64,000 bases of DNA from Escherichia coli (lineage in GTDB: Bacteria; Pseudomonadota; Gammaproteobacteria; Enterobacterales; Enterobacteriaceae). The stretch lies in NCBI RefSeq assembly GCF_045037415.1, contig NZ_CP173438.1; one strand, written 5' to 3'. Both the position numbers and the translations under genes were made by a program. The notes below the pieces were generated by a model. It had not been told where the DNA came from. It did not search any database and saw nothing but the letters and a program-made list of their open reading frames with translations. This document shows, piece after piece, positions 7,449-53,427 of the stretch (the first letter of the stretch is position 1; each line of letters opens with the position of its first letter).

Positions 7449-8822
7449 TTACTTGAGTGATGACATACCGCCGCCCAGCGACTGCCAGAGCGTGATTCGG
7501 TTTGTAAAATCAGTCAGTTGCAGTGCCAGCAGCTCCTGCTGTGCGCTCCACAAGCTGCGCTGCGCCGTCAACACGGTCAGGTAATCACCAACACCCGCCT
7601 GATAGCGACGCAAGCCAACATCGACCGTTTGTTGTTCAGCTTTAACATACTGGCGCTGTGCATCCAGTTGCTCTTCAAGCGTGGTCCGCCGCGCCAGTGC
7701 GTTAGCGACATCTTTAAATGCGCTCTGAACGGTTTTTTCATAGGTGGCAATGAGTCCACGCTTTTGTGCTTCTGCGTAACGAAGCTGCGCCAGATTACTT
7801 CCGCCAGTAAACAGCGGTAATGTGACCGATGGCGCAAATGACCAGATCTGCATTCCGTGGCTGAACAACGACGACAACGCGTCACTGCCAACACCGGCAC
7901 TGGCAGTCAGCGAAATCGTCGGGAAAAAGTTAGCCCGCGCCGCGCCAATATCTGCATTGGCGCTCTTCAAATTATGTTCCGCTTCCTGGATATCCGGGCG
8001 ACGCAGCAGAACATCAGATGATACTCCCGCAGGAACCAGACTTATCATTTGTTCCGGCAGGCTTTCCAGTGTTCCCGGTAGCAGATTTTCCGCAAGCGTT
8101 GTACCTGCCAGTAAGTTCAGCGCATTTTTATCCTGCATCACTTGTGTCTGATAGCTGGCAACGCTGGCGCGCGCTTGCTGATAAACACTCATCGCCTCAC
8201 TGACATCTGTCGCTGCCGCCGTGCCAACCTGTTGCTGGCGCTGGATAATTTTCAATGAGTTTTCTGCACTGGCCATCGTTTCTTTTGCCAGGGCCAGGTT
8301 GCTGTTATCAGCCGCCAGTGTCAGCCAGGCGGTGCTGATTTCAGCAATCAGCGTTAAACGAGTGTTCTGGGCTGTAAATTCACTGGCAAGCCAGGTTTCC
8401 CGCGCCGCCCGAGATAAACTCTGATTACGACCAAACAGATCTAACGTATAACTGGACACCGTGCCGTCAGCCTCGGCAGTTGTTCCCGTACCATTCGCCA
8501 GCGAACGGCTGCGGGTCGAACTTAAGGCCGCATTCACCGTCGGAAATAACGACGCATTAGTTTGCCCATAGAGCGCCCGTGCTGAGTCAATATCAGCAAT
8601 CGCTTTTTGCACATCGCGGTTACTGTTCAGTGCAATGGTTACTACCTGCTGCAATCGGGGATCGTGGATCACCTGCTGCCAGTCATGGCTGATTGCCTTC
8701 CCCTGGCCCTGTGCTCCCGGCAAGGTCGCCGGGATTGGGGATTCAGGCGTACTGTAGTGAGGATCGAGCGAGACACATCCCGCACTCAACAACACCAGAA
8801 AAATAAGAGAACGACGCAACAT
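7449..8822 (-). CDS. RND efflux outer membrane factor lipoprotein (NodT/OprM family), 457 aa
   Basis: Lipobox LLSAGC at the N-terminus, OprM/TolC-like repeat organisation, start 3 bp after the RND gene stop. Confidence 0.8.
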   Translation of the reverse strand: MLRRSLIFLVLLSAGCVSLDPHYSTPESPIPATLPGAQGQGKAISHDWQQVIHDPRLQQVVTIALNSNRDVQKAIADIDSARALYGQTNASLFPTVNAALSSTRSRSLANGTGTTAEADGTVSSYTLDLFGRNQSLSRAARETWLASEFTAQNTRLTLIAEISTAWLTLAADNSNLALAKETMASAENSLKIIQRQQQVGTAAATDVSEAMSVYQQARASVASYQTQVMQDKNALNLLAGTTLAENLLPGTLESLPEQMISLVPAGVSSDVLLRRPDIQEAEHNLKSANADIGAARANFFPTISLTASAGVGSDALSSLFSHGMQIWSFAPSVTLPLFTGGSNLAQLRYAEAQKRGLIATYEKTVQSAFKDVANALARRTTLEEQLDAQRQYVKAEQQTVDVGLRRYQAGVGDYLTVLTAQRSLWSAQQELLALQLTDFTNRITLWQSLGGGMSSLK

Positions 8823-29451: not shown

Positions 29452-29809
29452 AGCTCCTCCTTAATGACAGGGTTGCGAAGCCCTGATTCTCTTCAGGGTG
29501 AATATTAAAGATAACACAAACATCGCGTAACGATTTGATAACAACCCAAATTGATAAAAGAGGAGAAACCTTGAGGCAAAGCAAACAGCGGGATCAGGGA
29601 TCAGTGAGTAATGATCCAGAGGAGTTCGGCCCAGAAGAGCATCGACAGAGAAAATGCGCCCATCCAGGACCAATATTTCATATTTGTGTTGATCATAGGC
29701 TACACCCTTAACGGTTATTACTTTGTGTTGAGATAACTCAACCTGTTATTGCTGCGGTGTATTAAAAGCCCTGTAATTCATTAAAAATGGGTAATAAGAA
29801 TGATGATAA

Positions 29810-43714: not shown

Positions 43715-43759
43715 ATGAAAGCAATTTTCGTACTGAAAGGTTGGTGGCGCACTTCCTGA
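43715..43759 (+). CDS. trpL: trp operon leader peptide ([14 protein letters not shown])
   Basis: 14-codon ORF with tandem Trp codons upstream of the attenuator. Confidence 0.9.
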
Positions 43760-43801
43760 AACGGGCAGTGTATTCACCATGCGTAAAGCAATCAGATACC
43801 C

Positions 43802-43829
43802 AGCCCGCCTAATGAGCGGGCTTTTTTTT
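43802..43829 (+). terminator. trp attenuator terminator (3:4 hairpin with U-tract)
   Basis: Hairpin agcccgcc-taatga-gcgggct followed by TTTTTTTT. Confidence 0.9.
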
Positions 43830-49575: not shown

Positions 49576-50381
49576 TGGAACGCTACGAATCTCTGTTTGC
49601 CCAGTTGAAGGAGCGCAAAGAAGGCGCATTCGTTCCTTTCGTCACCCTCGGTGATCCGGGCATTGAGCAGTCGCTGAAAATTATCGATACGCTAATTGAA
49701 GCCGGTGCTGACGCGCTGGAGTTAGGCATCCCCTTCTCCGACCCACTGGCGGATGGCCCGACGATTCAAAACGCCACACTGCGTGCCTTTGCGGCGGGTG
49801 TGACCCCGGCGCAGTGCTTTGAGATGCTGGCACTGATTCGTCAAAAACATCCGACCATTCCTGTTGGCCTGCTGATGTACGCCAACCTGGTGTTTAACAA
49901 AGGCATTGATGAGTTTTACGCCCAGTGCGAGAAAGTCGGCGTCGATTCGGTGCTGGTTGCCGATGTGCCAGTTGAAGAGTCCGCGCCCTTCCGCCAGGCC
50001 GCGTTGCGTCATAATGTCGCACCTATCTTTATTTGCCCGCCGAATGCCGACGATGATTTGCTGCGCCAGATAGCCTCCTACGGTCGTGGATACACCTATT
50101 TATTGTCACGTGCGGGCGTGACCGGCGCAGAAAACCGCGCCGCGTTACCCCTCAATCATCTGGTTGCGAAGCTGAAAGAGTACAACGCTGCACCTCCATT
50201 GCAGGGATTTGGTATTTCCGCCCCTGATCAGGTAAAAGCAGCGATTGATGCAGGAGCTGCGGGCGCGATTTCTGGTTCGGCCATCGTTAAAATCATCGAG
50301 CAACATATTAATGAGCCAGAGAAAATGCTGGCGGCACTGAAAGCTTTTGTACAACCGATGAAAGCCACTACACGACGTTAA
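49575..50381 (+). CDS. trpA: Tryptophan synthase alpha chain
   Basis: 268 aa; start overlaps the trpB stop. Confidence 0.95.
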
Positions 50382-50390
50382 TTTGAGACA

Positions 50391-50416
50391 AACCGCCAGA
50401 AAACATCTGGCGGTTT
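50391..50416 (+). terminator. trp operon terminator (trp t)
   Basis: Hairpin aaccgccaga-aaacat-ctggcggttt immediately after the trpA stop. Confidence 0.85.
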
Positions 50417-50431
50417 ATTGATGGTAAAAAA

Positions 50432-50569
50432 TTAGAAGCGGTAACCTGCAGAGAACATAAATACCCACGGGTCAAGGCGTACGTTGTCAGAATAACGCCC
50501 TGCAGGCAGCACTGCGCCGTTGGATTTATATTTCACTTCGGTATCGATATCCATGTACCAGACCGACAT
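50432..50569 (-). pseudogene. ompW: ompW 3'-terminal fragment (last 45 codons, ...VRLDPWVFMFSAGYRF), candidate prophage attachment junction
   Basis: Translation ends with the characteristic OmpW C-terminus; the frame is closed by a stop immediately upstream of codon MSVW; the 5' part of the gene is absent from the window. Confidence 0.75.
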
Positions 50570-50756
50570 GTTTTAAAAAATGCAATAAGACATTGTATCT
50601 GAAAGAAAAAACAGGATTTGAGGCGCTTTTTTATACCGTTTTTCCGTGTTTTTAACTGCCTGATTTTATTGAAATCTTTTTTAGTTTTGCAGAAAGGATT
50701 TTTTGCTCGATCGCTTTAATTTTATACATTCCTGATAACGGAAATTTTTTTGCCCG

Positions 50757-50786
50757 TTGACAGTTTTTGTTCTCCGGGGCTATATT
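50757..50786 (+). promoter_or_regulatory. Candidate sigma70 promoter (TTGACA, 18-bp spacer, TATATT) upstream of the Rha gene
   Basis: Consensus-like hexamers read in the sequence; function inferred. Confidence 0.3.
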
Positions 50787-51013
50787 CCTCACACAACCGC
50801 AAAATCGGTTGTCGGGATTGGCGTCTCGGATAACATCACAACGCATAGCCGCGTTTGCGGTTTTTTTTGCGTTAAGCATTGCCACATTCGCATTATGGTG
50901 GGGCGTGCAGGGGCGGAGAAATCCGCGCCGGGTTTTGTGATGACCGGTTACGCCAACCCTGTACGTCTCACCACCTCCCTGATTGGCGTCAGAGGTGGTG
51001 ATCATCCAATTAA

Positions 51014-51586
51014 TTGGAGTCATCACATATGAATACAGCTATAACTTTTTCTAACGAGTCACCAAAAGTCTTTTTCAAAGATGGTCGCCTGGTTACCACC
51101 TCTCAAGCTGTTGCCGACTACTTCGATAAACAACATAAACACGTTTTAGCTAAGATTGACACACTCGACTGCTCTCCCGAATTTACATCAGCCAACTTTT
51201 CGGCCGATGTTCAGACTGTCGAAATTGGCAACGGCGCAGAACGTGAATCACGATGCTACCTGATCACAAAAGACGGCTTCATGTTCCTCGTAATGGGATT
51301 TACTGGCAAAAAAGCAGCCAGACTAAAAGAAGCTTACATTGAAAAATTTAACGCAATGGAAGAAGAACTCCACAAACGTCCTCCTGCAGCACAAAACTCC
51401 CCCGCCCCAAATAATGGATGCGCATTACTGATCCACTTCGATAAACACGGTCAGGTCGAGTTCACAGAAAAAGTCCCCGCCGATGCGATGGTATGCACGC
51501 TGGAACGGTTTAAATTTTATCTGGAGCAACATGGGTGGATCGTTGCCCGTAAAGAACAATTGGTGGAAAGGTTGATGCGGTTTTAA
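51014..51586 (+). CDS. Phage regulatory protein, Rha family (190 aa)
   Basis: N-terminal Rha-type motif (VTTSQAVADYFDKQHKHVLAKIDTL; LVMGFTGKKAARLKEAYIEKFNAME). Confidence 0.7.
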   Translation: MESSHMNTAITFSNESPKVFFKDGRLVTTSQAVADYFDKQHKHVLAKIDTLDCSPEFTSANFSADVQTVEIGNGAERESRCYLITKDGFMFLVMGFTGKKAARLKEAYIEKFNAMEEELHKRPPAAQNSPAPNNGCALLIHFDKHGQVEFTEKVPADAMVCTLERFKFYLEQHGWIVARKEQLVERLMRF

Positions 51587-51593
51587 TGAATGC

Positions 51594-51626
51594 AAAACCC
51601 CGGATGATCACCGGGGTTAATTTTAT
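51594..51626 (+). terminator. Rho-independent terminator downstream of the Rha gene
   Basis: Hairpin aaaaccccgg-atgatca-ccggggtt followed by AATTTTA. Confidence 0.6.
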
Positions 51627-51947
51627 CGAGCGTGATTGCCGCTAATCGCCATCGCTCTGATTGAGCGTAAATCATTCAGGTTATTCAGTTCTTCCTTCTG
51701 CTCTCGCTGACGTCAATAAATCCCATCATTGCGATCAACCTCATCCTTAACCATTGATGCGAGCAGTTCTTCCAGTTTCTGCGCTGACAGCTTTACCTGG
51801 TGATCTTCAGCATCTTCCCGGGCTATTGTGGTTCGCGCAGTGGCTGATTTTGCTGACATCACCACAGGGGGCAGACGGACCATTGAACCATGGCCTCCGG
51901 AACAAATAAGGGCAAAAATAACAACCACTATCGAAAGCTCACAAACT

Positions 51948-52085
51948 AACCGCAGCACGTTCCTGCATACGACGTGTCTGCGGCATAATCCCAATGATTA
52001 CTCCCTGACAGGATTTGCAGGCCACTCAATATCAGGTGCAGTTGATGTATCAACACGATTCAACAATACCCGATATTTATTCCAT
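51948..52085. repeat. Direct repeat copy 1 (about 140 bp): tfa 3' end plus its terminator hairpin
   Basis: Roughly 85-90 percent identical by eye to 52998-53135 (aaccgcagcacgt...ggcataatcccaatgattactccctgacag...ggccactcaatatcaggtgcagttgatgtatcaacacg). Confidence 0.8.
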
Positions 52086-52267
52086 GCCTCCAGCAACGAT
52101 CTTTCTTCCTCCGTTGCGATTTCCAGATCTACAGCATCCTGCAGTGGCGCAATATACTCACTGAATTCCTGGATGTAGAACTGTGTGGTGACGGTCTTCC
52201 AGCCATTCGGCTCCTGCTGTATCGAAGCATACCAGGCTATTTCAATATCGCTATGCTGCGGCAGCAT
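51998..52267 (-). pseudogene. Tail fibre assembly protein (Tfa) C-terminal fragment, 89 codons
   Basis: C-terminus ...[36 protein letters not shown] resembles the intact Tfa at 54952-55479; the N-terminal half is missing. Confidence 0.65.
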
Positions 52268-52323
52268 TTAACCCCTTGTAATTCATCGCCATAATTGATT
52301 TAATTCACAAATAAAACTATAAC

Positions 52324-52992
52324 ATGGTGAAATCAATGAAAAAAAACACAGATGATGGGGCTAAAATTTACACACCACTTACCCTAAAGCTTTATGACTG
52401 GTGGGTTTTGGGAGTATCAAATCGGCTTGCATGGGGATGTCCTACAAAGGAACACCTTCTTCCACACTTTCTGGAACATGTAGGTAACAACCATCTGGAT
52501 ATTGGTGTTGGAACTGGGTTTTACCTTACTCACGTACCTGAGAGTAGTCTGATATCTTTAATGGATTTGAACGAAGCTAGCCTGAACGCGGCATCTACAA
52601 GGGCTGGGGAATCAAAAATTAAACATAAAATTAGCCATGATGTTTTTGAACCTTATCCCGCGGCGTTACATGGTCAATTTGATTCCATTTCCATGTTTTA
52701 CCTTCTTCACTGCCTGCCTGGAAATATATCTACAAAAAGCTGTGTAATACGCAATGCGGCGCAGGCCTTAACTGACGATGGAACTCTATACGGAGCCACA
52801 ATTCTTGGCGATGGAGTTGTGCACAATAGCTTCGGTCAAAAACTGATGCGCATTTACAATCAGAAAGGCATCTTTTCAAACACAAAAGATTCCGAAGAAG
52901 GCTTAACACATATACTCTCAGAGCATTTCGAGAATGTTAAAACCAAGGTTCAAGGTACTGTAGTAATGTTTTCCGCTTCAGGGAAAAAATAG
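52324..52992 (+). CDS. Class I SAM-dependent methyltransferase (222 aa), prophage moron
   Basis: Motif I LDIGVGTGFY; AT-rich coding sequence; flanked by the diverged tfa 3' repeats. Confidence 0.7.
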   Translation: MVKSMKKNTDDGAKIYTPLTLKLYDWWVLGVSNRLAWGCPTKEHLLPHFLEHVGNNHLDIGVGTGFYLTHVPESSLISLMDLNEASLNAASTRAGESKIKHKISHDVFEPYPAALHGQFDSISMFYLLHCLPGNISTKSCVIRNAAQALTDDGTLYGATILGDGVVHNSFGQKLMRIYNQKGIFSNTKDSEEGLTHILSEHFENVKTKVQGTVVMFSASGKK

Positions 52993-52997
52993 CATCC

Positions 52998-53135
52998 AAC
53001 CGCAGCACGTTCTTGCTTAAGACGTGCTGCGGCATAATCCCAATGATTACTCCCTGACAGGGTTCGTAGGCCACTCAATATCAGGTGCAGTTGATGTATC
53101 AACACGGTTCAGTAACACCCGATACTTTTTCTAGG
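52998..53135. repeat. Direct repeat copy 2: tfa 3' remnant plus hairpin (ccgcagcacgt...acgtgctgcgg)
   Basis: Paralogous to 51948-52085; the hairpin lies immediately after the methyltransferase stop. Confidence 0.8.
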
Positions 53136-53139
53136 CTTC

Positions 53140-53373
53140 CACCACCAGCACGACAAGATGCCGCATACAGTGAACCAGTCAGTCCAGTTTTCAGACAACC
53201 AGTGCGTCACCTTTTTGAAGGCGCTTTAAAGCACGTTTTAATCCAGGTCGGCCTGTCCTTGTTCCGCTTAATTTATCTTCAAATATTTGTTCATATCCTG
53301 CACAAACAAGAGCGTTTCGTTGCAGATCTGTATTCTGGTCATTTGTTGATACCCTTACATAGCCAATCAGCAC
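53140..53373 (-). pseudogene. pin: DNA invertase Pin/Gin/Hin family, truncated and interrupted
   Basis: N-terminal serine recombinase signature (V)LIGYVRVSTNDQNTDLQRNAL...LKRLQKGDALVV, then in-frame stop, degenerate sequence and fusion to the tfa remnant about 75 codons in. Confidence 0.8.
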
Positions 53374-53427
53374 GCTGAATCTCCCGTCCAAAAGCACAAA
53401 TCATGCCATGCAGGCCAGAAACCGCCA

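Follow-up and report, generated by a model that had tools for sequence, protein, structure and literature searches.

The region between the ompW junction and the end of the rha gene in an Escherichia coli lambdoid prophage is in all likelihood an immI-type RNA-controlled antirepressor cassette, situated at the attR end of a prophage that lies in ompW of an ST131-type E. coli. It was analyzed within a 64,000-nucleotide stretch of contig NZ_CP173438.1 (assembly GCF_045037415.1), hereafter the window; the ST131 assignment of the host strains is our own, the matching genomes listed including O25b:H4 strains. The leader before rha comprises a gene for an IsrK-type small RNA and a gene for a C4-type antisense RNA, which would jointly control translation of the antirepressor-like protein (Table 1); it is an ordinary example of an already described type of phage immunity module, though one that carries a wrong annotation. 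Its elements, their family membership, their complementarity and their co-variation were observed directly. The comparative evidence makes base pairing across the rha ribosome-binding site the probable point of regulation, because a', a1 and a2 on the one hand and b', b1 and b2 on the other co-vary three ways, and because b2 lies between the Shine-Dalgarno (SD) sequence and the ATG. A preliminary description of the region had proposed control by attenuation or antitermination; given RNA pairing at the ribosome site this is only partly right, in that there is a regulatory leader and the order promoter, terminator, gene is correct, but the regulated step would be pairing over the rha ribosome site.

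Table 1. Features of the cassette and its flanks (coordinates within the window)
Feature	Coordinates	Strand	Basis or remark
ompW 3' fragment, chromosome/prophage junction	50432-50572	-	RefSeq pseudo-CDS 'OmpW family outer membrane protein, missing N-terminus'
AT-rich spacer, att junction to promoter	50573-50756	.	~30% GC; presumed att arm
sigma-70 promoter (PisrK equivalent), TTGACA-N18-TATATT	50757-50786	+	11/12 consensus match
IsrK-family small RNA (P1 a1/b1 region, P4 seqA equivalent)	50793-50870	+	Rfam RF01394
a1 UUGGCGU, loop of IsrK hairpin 2	50818-50824	+	exact 7/7 complement of a' 50950-56
b1 CAUCACA in IsrK	50834-50840	+	exact 7/7 complement of 50936-42 (b')
IsrK intrinsic terminator, 6-bp stem, GUUU loop, T8	50847-50868	+	the "weak hairpin with T8" of the preliminary description
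C4-family antisense RNA gene (Gifsy-1 STnc1160, P4 CI equivalent)	50891-50978	+	Rfam RF01695
45-codon frame, Gifsy-1 orf45 equivalent	50895-51032	+	AUG in C4 5' arm; TGA overlaps rha ATG
b' UGUGAUGA, loop of C4 hairpin 2 (hypervariable specificity loop)	50936-50943	+	complement searches
a' ACGCCAA, single-stranded joint of C4	50950-50956	+	complement searches
a2 UUGGCGU, in hairpin loop	50983-50989	+	exact 7/7 complement of a'
rha ribosome-binding site: SD GGAG 51016-19, then b2 directly, ATG 1 nt on	51016-51027	+	
b2 UCAUCACA, between SD and rha ATG	51020-51027	+	8/8 complement of b'
rha, 185 aa, Bro-network regulator/antirepressor candidate	51029-51586	+	Rha N-domain + AnrP-type C-terminal domain
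operon terminator, 8-bp stem (6 GC pairs) + T-rich tail	51596-51626	+	

A near-consensus promoter and an IsrK-type RNA

The promoter elements, TTGACA at 50757-62 and TATATT at 50781-86 with an 18-nt spacer, stand exactly where the preliminary description had put them, and their 11/12 agreement with the consensus is not a chance match: among shuffles of 50570-51028 just 1% contain a match of at least 11/12, and this is the sole one of that quality on either strand across the whole 64-kb window. Its position in the module corresponds to that of the collinear isrK promoter of Gifsy-1, which shows the same TTGACA-N18-TATATT and an identical CCGGGGC before the -10 element, and also with the P1 promoter P1c4. 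From the promoter end to position 1 of the Rfam isrK model there are 6 nt, placing the predicted transcription start at ~50793. The spacer upstream (50573-50756) contains neither an Rfam match nor a credible ORF; of the ~440 bp formerly described as AT-rich, the first 187 bp (50570-50756) deserve the term at 30.5% GC, but from the transcription start on the GC content is 44-61%.

The IsrK match (50793-50867) extends over the full model (positions 1-77) with 72.2 bits (gathering threshold 50, E 1.7e-13), and is overlapped by a sub-threshold match to the c4-a1b1 model (43.8 bits). The RNA begins with two hairpins and continues through an unpaired stretch to an intrinsic terminator, and its helices show compensatory changes across a co-variation set of 13 loci, P1 among them. 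The terminator itself, AGCCGC-GUUU-GCGGUU at 50847-50862 (dG -8.1 kcal/mol) with eight T at 50861-50868, corresponds to hairpin three in the Rfam isrK model; the short hairpin followed by eight T had been correctly spotted and is not a chance feature. Promoter and terminator, however, bound a small-RNA gene of a known family, IsrK, and the remainder of the leader, which had been missed, holds the C4-type antisense RNA gene and the target sites. The window IsrK can also be folded in an alternative way, with its 5' ACCGCAAA pairing with the 3' half of the terminator (-24.0 versus -20.5 kcal/mol). This anti-terminator fold, specific to the window, is by eye not conserved among the homologues and was given no part in the model.

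If the T8 hairpin were a cis attenuator, relieved by a Q-/N-like antiterminator or by ribosome-coupled attenuation, it would be the main control of rha. The terminator does stand between the promoter and rha, its 3' half is engaged in the alternative fold of the window IsrK, and in the characterized Gifsy-1 homologue, whose expression requires terminator read-through, just a subset of transcripts passes the terminator (PMC4825925). However, no leader peptide precedes the terminator, two RNA genes belonging to trans-acting families take up the leader, the C4 loops co-vary with the ribosome site and not with the terminator, and in Gifsy-1 a transcriptional fusion already yields 280 units whereas the translational one is silent at 4 units (PMC4825925). 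We regard this reading as quite unlikely: neither classical attenuation nor antitermination by a protein at the T8 hairpin is what the comparative evidence indicates.

A C4-type RNA with loops co-varying with the ribosome site

The C4 gene matches RF01695 over the full model (75.9 bits, gathering threshold 45, E 4.9e-13), and its minimum-free-energy fold is the three-helix fold of the model. Its AU/GGU motif at 50895-50899 (AU|GGU) aligns with the annotated 5' end of P1 c4, and by homology with that annotation the mature C4 RNA would extend over ~50897-50975; in P1, RNase P processes the transcript at the GGU motif, and b' occludes the ribosome site (PMC5320573). In the 13 loci the 17-bp outer stem shows 100% pairing and 6 of its pairs have changed on both sides, as have all 5 pairs of inner hairpin 1; in the C4 helices 11 pairs carry double changes.

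The sites a' and b' each recur as complements in IsrK and downstream of C4 (Table 1). The complement of b' occurs a single time on the + strand of the window, at b2, and the hairpin that presents a2 has a stem in which the C4 3' arm (CACCACC) is paired with GGUGGUG. Four a' types are seen among the 13 loci, each with a matching a1 and a2, while b' is different in almost all of them, with b1 and b2 altered to match. Over the 13 loci the a1:a' helix is 93.6% paired, and both partners have changed in 3 of its pairs; for cognate b':b1 duplexes the mean is -11.1 kcal/mol, a value attained by 0 of 20000 permutations. Cognate loop duplexes have a mean of ~-11.5 kcal/mol versus ~-6.4 for non-cognate ones, and here too 0 of 20000 permutations attain the cognate mean. 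Imposed on the 13-locus alignment as a whole, the structure is 94.8% paired, versus ~40% with the partners slid, and 23 pairs are changed on both sides. In the other loci b2 adjoins or overlaps the SD of the downstream gene, both by eye and by an automatic measure; the b2 sites of VT2-Sakai and SW-37 were located by eye, as the greedy longest-complement routine misplaced both. Duplexes predicted for the complete RNAs (IsrK and C4 with each other and with the downstream leader) are uninterpretable because long stems dominate them, and pairing was assessed instead through loop-only duplexes and exact-complement searches.

These same sites could alternatively serve a P4-type transcriptional control, in which a C4/CI-like RNA would pair with a1/b1 (seqA) and a2/b2 (seqC) on the nascent RNA and elicit premature termination. 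P4 yields the same pair of Rfam matches in the same order, b1 is only 6 nt 5' of the terminator stem, and the Gifsy-1 authors themselves raise premature termination for STnc1160 (PMC4825925); nevertheless, we consider this reading unlikely, as b2 sits exactly on the ribosome site, as in P1, and constitutive STnc1160 in Gifsy-1 made IsrK-mediated toxicity more pronounced rather than reducing it (PMC4825925). The P4-type transcriptional and the translational modes are not mutually exclusive, and early termination favored by the antisense RNA, as in P4, may make some contribution. In P1 the translational block leads secondarily to Rho-dependent termination.

The rha gene and the 'ash family protein' frame

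The identification of the downstream ORF as a member of the Rha family is borne out by Pfam Phage_pRha (PF09669), which matches residues 23-112 (E 3.4e-27, 95.3 bits versus a cut-off of 29.9), and the protein is 45% identical to mEp460 gp41, which follows the same RNA module. The nature of its C-terminal domain, raised as a question in the preliminary description, is answered by homology to the C-terminus of Gifsy-1 AnrP (32% identity over Rha residues 119-182, E 3e-6); the domain also matches phrog_2379, 'anti-repressor' (2.7e-17), and among PDB sequences nothing matched the Rha protein with an E better than 0.3. TTG 51014 was discarded as the start codon: it is without a Shine-Dalgarno sequence, and RefSeq and the homologues favor ATG 51029, served by GGAG at 51016-19. 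With ATG 51029 as the likely start, the T-tract is 160 nt upstream, not the ~145 nt formerly given, and the leader measures 459 bp. The ribosome site is additionally buried in a local hairpin (50995-51027, dG -14.2 kcal/mol).

The 45-codon frame that begins in the C4 5' arm ends in an overlap with the rha start, ATGA at 51029-32. Gifsy-1 orf45 likewise has 45 codons and an AUGA overlap, and its translation is needed for that of anrP (PMC4825925). The orf45-type peptide is not conserved, the same RNA being read in 3 frames among the loci. RefSeq carries a longer CDS, a 91-aa 'ash family protein' at 50757-51032, which covers the two RNA genes and here is a translation of them. The opposite assumption, namely that the leader encodes a 91-aa Ash family protein co-translated with Rha and that the RNA matches are incidental, has to account for a start codon, TTG, that is the -35 hexamer itself and therefore lies upstream of the transcription start. 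Its case consists of a match of Pfam Phage_ASH (PF10554) to the ORF 50757-51032 (53.8 bits versus a cut-off of 26), a frame open for 91 codons with its stop overlapping the rha start, and the translation in Gifsy-1 of the last 45 codons of the Ash-type frame. Yet Phage_ASH matches the obsolete 'cI' ORF of P4 over the CI RNA gene and not the real epsilon/Ash protein, which matches PF25738; the conserved C4 3' half is read in all three frames among the 13 loci, with stops interrupting it in P1, VT2-Sakai and phiV10; and the substitutions across these loci are compensatory for RNA helices, which speaks against an Ash protein gene. A protein-coding leader is accordingly extremely unlikely, and 'ash family protein' is a probable systematic mis-annotation.

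A proposed RNA switch

We propose that the near-consensus sigma-70 promoter fires at ~50793 and that most transcripts would end at the T8 terminator, yielding an IsrK-type RNA of ~75 nt bearing a1 and b1, with a fraction reading through to give the C4-type RNA, probably excised by RNase P as in P1, and the rha mRNA. Pairing of C4 a' and b' with a2 and b2 would then keep the antirepressor-like protein off, ribosomes being excluded because b2 lies between the SD and the rha AUG, and C4 may repress matching superinfecting phages in trans. IsrK bears the same two sites and would therefore compete for a'/b', whether on free C4 or on the unprocessed leader. At the window locus, read-through, processing, repression and activation are all expected by homology, each functional step of the model having been taken over from P1 or Gifsy-1. 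In the latter, excess IsrK switches translation on, with ribosomes starting at the orf45 AUG in the C4 5' arm and reaching the AUGA (PMC4825925).

The two experimental models differ, in that C4 represses in P1 whereas IsrK remodels the mRNA in Gifsy-1; we infer that they may be joined through a decoy role of IsrK. The sites b1/a1 co-vary with b'/a' no less tightly than b2/a2 do, which suggests IsrK as a cognate decoy for C4. We offer only tentatively the fuller version, that IsrK is a cognate decoy (an anti-antisense RNA) and that 'C4 represses ant' of P1 and 'IsrK activates anrP' of Gifsy-1 are halves of one self-contained RNA toggle. Were this so, immunity specificity would reside in the hypervariable 8-12-nt loop, the 'Ash family protein' that Pfam and RefSeq annotate in many enterobacterial prophages would be largely an artefact of translating these two RNA genes, and the orphan ST131 cassette could act in trans, in superinfection immunity or prophage cross-talk.

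Prophage context

The placement of the gene at the extreme prophage end beside the att junction, already made in the preliminary description, holds: the ompW fragment (its ORF ending in ...GYRF) ends at ~50572, and the tail genes adjoin this end. The prophage, lambdoid and ~54 kb long, has its integrase at the far end from the rha cassette, and is found in ~400 complete E. coli genomes at at least 99% identity. Pseudogenes occupy 51.6-53.5 kb, and deeper in the prophage there are an IS21-family (ISEc12) insertion and a frameshifted gpJ. With its prophage end decayed, the cassette may therefore lack a cognate repressor to act on.

This decay invites the reading of the cassette as an inert remnant, intact in sequence only through recent clonal insertion. 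The neighboring genes are indeed pseudogenes, the 396 E. coli records at at least 99% identity are uninformative on selection, and an exact-string scan of IMG/VR for the b'+a' specificity returned one contig only, from the same prophage, and named no partner phage. All of the elements are intact, however, including the promoter (11/12), two full-length RNA matches, four perfect target sites, the 185-codon ORF and the terminator, and we judge the remnant reading very unlikely. A defined three-part RNA switch takes the place of a loosely described "long leader" and of an incorrect protein annotation, though the module contains nothing conceptually new.

Comparison with known systems

The order promoter, IsrK, ~25 nt, C4, a2, b2 and start codon is the same in P1, Gifsy-1 and 10 further phages. 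The P1/P7 immI operon is reportedly organized as c4 - icd - ant1/2 (Citron & Schuster 1990, following the annotation of NC_005856). In P1, where a1, b1, c4, a2 and b2 are annotated (NC_005856), the order from the promoter to the first gene, including a terminator-like hairpin, is identical to that in the window, and P1 further shares the b2 over the ribosome site, the AU/GGU RNase P motif (AU|GGU) and a downstream antirepressor (a candidate one in the window). The two leaders nonetheless have only 53% sequence identity, and both the a and the b specificities differ. P1 has the small icd between b2 and ant, whereas in the window b2 is directly on the rha ribosome site, and in none of the 12 non-P1 loci does an icd-like gene separate b2 from the Bro-network gene. 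P1 is also a plasmid prophage, unlike the lambdoid prophage that houses the window cassette.

In P4, the isrK match (8615-8692) is followed on the minus strand by that to C4 (8420-8507), as in the window; the comparison with P4 covered these paired Rfam matches. Immunity in P4 is conferred by a processed RNA, which pairs on either side of its own gene (PMC4825925, PMC10111431), and the arrangement seqA - CI RNA (seqB) - seqC brings about premature transcription termination of the replication operon of a satellite phage. The window has no P4-like replication operon, its downstream gene being a Rha-family one in a lambdoid prophage.

The Gifsy-1 isrK-orf45(STnc1160)-anrP region of S. Typhimurium (Hershko-Shalev et al. 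2016, PMC4825925) has the same promoter and an IsrK terminator that is leaky there, with promoter-dependent read-through by a subset of transcripts and trans-activation by IsrK (PMC4825925). As in the window, a C4-like RNA lies ~20-25 nt downstream of IsrK, the a sites are UUGGCGU / ACGCCAA, a 45-codon frame runs from the C4 5' arm to the AUGA overlap, and b2 is at the ribosome site of the downstream gene. The compensatory Gifsy-1 mutants G28/G31 with C162/C159 (PMC4825925) fall in a1 and a', respectively, by our own numbering of the Gifsy-1 sequence. Lysogens transcribe both IsrK and STnc1160 at high levels (PMC7067206); in Tree et al. 2014 (PMC4104026), a source of E. coli transcript evidence, the module is absent from the main text. 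AnrP and the window Rha have the C-terminal domain in common, but their N-domains differ (ORF6N in AnrP, Rha in the window), and the leaders are only 64% identical. The b specificity is UGUGAUGA in the window versus UCGGUGAU in Gifsy-1, and over the C4 3' half the frame of the orf45 peptide differs from that of Gifsy-1. The window is without the antQ that lies upstream in Gifsy-1 and the isrJ at its 3' end (isrJ gave no match in 50300-52300, even at E up to 10); upstream there is instead the ompW/att junction, and unlike in Gifsy-1 the cassette stands past the tail-fibre genes beside attR.

Beyond these, Stx phages, phiV10, mEp460, Salmonella and Hafnia phages and a P2-like Citrobacter phage carry IsrK, C4, a2/b2 and a Bro-network gene, the last being Rha, ORF6N+P22_AR_C or Bro-N. 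The cassette varies in position among them (nin region, early right operon, beside the tail spike), no two share a b' loop, and in the phage collection no leader exceeds ~79% identity to that of the window. One cassette design with a hypervariable specificity loop is thus common to P1, P4, Gifsy-1, the Stx phages and others, and this shared design helps to predict which prophages cross-repress or cross-induce one another.

Two RNA genes in the rha leader

The Rha-family gene rha stands at one end of a ~54-kb lambdoid prophage, the one that carries the side-tail-fibre genes, with the integrase at the opposite end, and is preceded by trpB, trpA and a 3' fragment of ompW (minus strand, ending at ~50572), in keeping with the preliminary description, which had placed it at the prophage end next to the att junction. 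Its start is likely the ATG at 51029, with a GGAG (51016-19) upstream, as also chosen in RefSeq; the leader is therefore 459 bp long and 160 nt, not about 145 nt as earlier estimated, separate the T-tract from the start codon. The ~440 bp upstream had been called AT-rich, which holds for the first 187 bp past the junction (30.5% GC) but not for the transcribed leader (44-61% GC). The promoter proposed at 50757-50786 was located exactly: across both strands of the 64-kb window no second site reaches its 11/12 match, and such a promoter arises in only 1% of shuffled versions of 50570-51028. The proposed hairpin and T8 tract are likewise both present.

An Rfam scan of the window at curated thresholds recovered full-model matches to isrK and C4 antisense RNA in this leader (see table), and the 'a1, b1 targets of C4' model covers the 5' half of IsrK at 43.8 bits, slightly under its threshold of 46.7. 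The IsrK match starts 6 nt past the -10 hexamer, and the T8 hairpin is the third of its hairpins; promoter and terminator thus bound a small-RNA gene. The rest of the leader is mostly a second RNA gene of the C4 type, whose RNA folds as two hairpins inside a 17-bp outer stem. Two C4 segments, a' and b', have exact complements both in IsrK (a1, b1) and between C4 and rha (a2, b2), the site names following the P1 genome record, and TCATCACA has no further copy on the window's plus strand. A local hairpin (dG -14.2 kcal/mol) already encloses the rha ribosome site. In the minimum-free-energy fold of IsrK (50793-50870), at -24.0 kcal/mol versus -20.5 for the family fold with its three hairpins, the 5' ACCGCAAA is paired to the terminator's 3' half. 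This alternative fold is a possible anti-terminator conformer, and as judged by eye it is not conserved among homologues.

Features of the rha leader in window coordinates
Feature	Position	Strand	Description
Promoter TTGACA-N18-TATATT	TTGACA 50757-62, TATATT 50781-86	+	11/12 match
isrK (RF01394)	50793-50867	+	72.2 bits, gathering 50; full model
a1 UUGGCGU	50818-24	+	exact complement of a'; loop of IsrK hairpin 2
b1 CAUCACA	50834-40	+	exact complement of b'; single-stranded part of IsrK
Hairpin AGCCGC-GUUU-GCGGUU	50847-50862	+	dG -8.1 kcal/mol
T8 tract	50861-50868	+	follows the hairpin
C4 antisense RNA (RF01695)	50891-50978	+	75.9 bits, gathering 45; full model
b' UGUGAUGA	50936-43	+	in loop of C4 second hairpin
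a' ACGCCAA	50950-56	+	single-stranded joint of C4
a2 UUGGCGU	50983-89	+	exact complement of a'; starts 5 nt past C4
b2 UCAUCACA	51020-27	+	exact complement of b'; fills gap from Shine-Dalgarno GGAG to rha ATG

The pairing sites co-vary across phages

Relatives of the leader (55-79% identity) were found in 285 phage records, and we compared 13 loci, namely those of the window, P1, Gifsy-1, VT2-Sakai, phi296, an Stx2c phage, phiV10, mEp460, Escherichia phage 2H10, Salmonella phages SW-37 and 118970_sal3, a Hafnia phage, and a P2-like Citrobacter phage. IsrK is followed ~25 nt downstream by C4 in all 10 lambdoid and P2-like loci scanned, and direct reading of all 13 found a2 and b2, after which a Bro-network gene begins, with b2 adjoining or overlapping the Shine-Dalgarno of that gene. 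The b' loop varies in nearly all loci and b1 and b2 vary along with it: cognate b duplexes average about -11.5 kcal/mol versus about -6.4 for non-cognate ones, and the cognate mean was reached by none of 20000 partner permutations for either b1 or b2. The a' segment occurs as four types (ACGCCAA, AUUUCCAC, AGUUCCAA, and CUGUCAA in P1), each matched by its a1 and a2. In the 13-locus alignment, the helices together with a1:a' are 94.8% paired, versus about 40% with partners slid, with 23 pairs changed on both sides; swapping in a':a2 for a1:a' gives 93.9%. The comparison shows the elements themselves, how they complement one another, and how they co-vary. The co-varying sites and paired helices offer direct sequence evidence for selection on the pairings, in the window's copy as well as across the family.

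Probable mis-annotation as an 'ash family protein'

In RefSeq, 50757-51032 (plus strand) is a CDS for an 'ash family protein', and this ORF matches Pfam Phage_ASH (PF10554). As a real product, such a protein would start at a TTG that is the promoter -35 hexamer, and its frame is interrupted by stops in P1, VT2-Sakai, and phiV10; moreover, because the b' loop varies in length, all three reading frames occur across the conserved 3' half of C4 among the 13 loci. The Phage_ASH match in phage P4 falls on the obsolete 'cI gene product' ORF (8168-8584, minus strand of the P4 sequence), exactly over the CI RNA gene, and the true epsilon/Ash protein matches another family, PF25738. Phage_ASH and the RefSeq annotation hence appear to reflect conceptual translation of two RNA genes, isrK and C4. 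PF10554 has served as the epsilon marker in a published P4 survey (PMC8628076). Ribosomes may nevertheless traverse the last 45 codons of the frame, by analogy to Gifsy-1. The frame that begins with the AUG of the C4 5' arm (50895) is open to or through the downstream start codon in 10 of the 13 loci, which are non-independent, despite its peptide being read in three different frames across loci; this hints, within the same limit of non-independence, that it is translation through the region, and not the peptide as such, that counts.

The Rha protein and its genomic setting

That the ORF belongs to the Rha family, as first described, is confirmed by its match to Pfam Phage_pRha (E 3.4e-27), with the Rha domain at residues 23-112. 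The protein shares 45% identity with gp41 of mEp460, encoded downstream of the same RNA cassette. Over residues 119-182 it shows homology to the C-terminal domain of the Gifsy-1 antirepressor-type protein AnrP (32% identity, E 3e-6), and the C-terminal region also matches phrog_2379 'anti-repressor' (2.7e-17). The N-terminal domain of AnrP is ORF6N, and other loci have Bro-N or P22_AR_C, a pattern of domain shuffling previously described for the Bro network (PMC10111431). A search for solved structures related to the Rha protein by sequence found none.

The sequence is 100% identical in many complete E. coli genomes, O25b:H4 strains among them. In IMG/VR, the exact b'+a' string occurs only in contig IMGVR_UViG_2869953405_000008 (500-1600), which has the same prophage end (98% identical) with an IS1 transposase gene in place of the window's ompW. 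The trpA stop is separated from the ompW fragment's 3' end by only ~50 bp (50381-50432), with a terminator-like hairpin in between; yciG, yciF, and yciE, which lie between trpA and ompW in K-12, are seemingly absent here. Downstream of rha, 5' portions of tail-fibre-assembly genes make up a ~150-nt direct repeat (51948-52095 and 52998-53144; 89-90% identical), whose copies enclose a gene for a class I SAM-dependent methyltransferase (52324-52992); a truncated Pin-type invertase gene lies alongside (~53191-53397). An Rfam IS009 match (52041-52244, minus strand; 112.5 bits, just under the gathering score of 117) falls within a tail-fibre-assembly pseudogene. The chromosomal part has strong Rfam matches to the enterobacterial sRNA STnc180 (29557-29769, minus strand; 182.6 bits) and the trp operon leader (43736-43829, plus strand; 93.1 bits).

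Proposed mechanism and comparison with P1 and Gifsy-1

In the most likely mechanism, transcription would start constitutively at ~50793, with the majority of transcripts stopping at T8 to yield IsrK and read-through transcripts yielding C4 and the rha mRNA. C4 would pair with a2 and b2 and block the rha ribosome site, and IsrK, bearing the same two sites, would compete for a' and b' and relieve the block. Read-through, processing, repression, and activation at the rha locus are here inferred from the homologues. The preliminary reading of attenuation or antitermination rightly saw a regulatory leader containing a terminator, but the IsrK and C4 genes and the position of b2 at the rha ribosome site point to a mode other than classical attenuation or antitermination. 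P4, outside the 13-locus set, has the same two Rfam matches in the same order, and a P4-like effect on termination could also contribute.

The cassette has close counterparts. The P1 record lists promoter P1c4, a1, b1, c4 RNA, a2, b2, icd, and ant1, in the same order as the window's elements. In P1, RNase P excises C4 at a GGU motif and the ribosome site is occluded by the C4 b' loop (as summarised in PMC5320573); the corresponding place in the window carries AU|GGU. Gifsy-1 shares the TTGACA-N18-TATATT promoter and the a sites with the window, and its 45-codon frame (orf45), which opens at the AUG within the C4-like RNA's 5' arm and closes in an AUGA overlapping the anrP start, is paralleled by the window's 45-codon frame (50895-51032) with the same overlap. 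In Gifsy-1, anrP transcripts start at the isrK promoter and run through the IsrK terminator; this long form is translationally silent, and IsrK in trans activates translation >100-fold, which requires orf45 translation (Hershko-Shalev et al., PMC4825925). In the same study, G28/G31 were paired with C162/C159, and STnc1160 was a stable processed RNA from downstream of IsrK (PMC4825925). By our own numbering of the Gifsy-1 sequence, G28/G31 fall in a1 and C159/C162 in a', which makes the Gifsy-1 'helix b-I' the a1:a' pairing; judged from sequence, STnc1160/orf45 coincides with a C4-type RNA. Lysogens transcribe both IsrK and STnc1160 at high levels under all conditions examined (PMC7067206). Unlike its characterised relatives, the window's locus lacks icd and isrJ, and it has its own b specificity, a Rha N-terminal domain, and a position adjoining attR; it is nonetheless a phage immunity cassette of an already known type.
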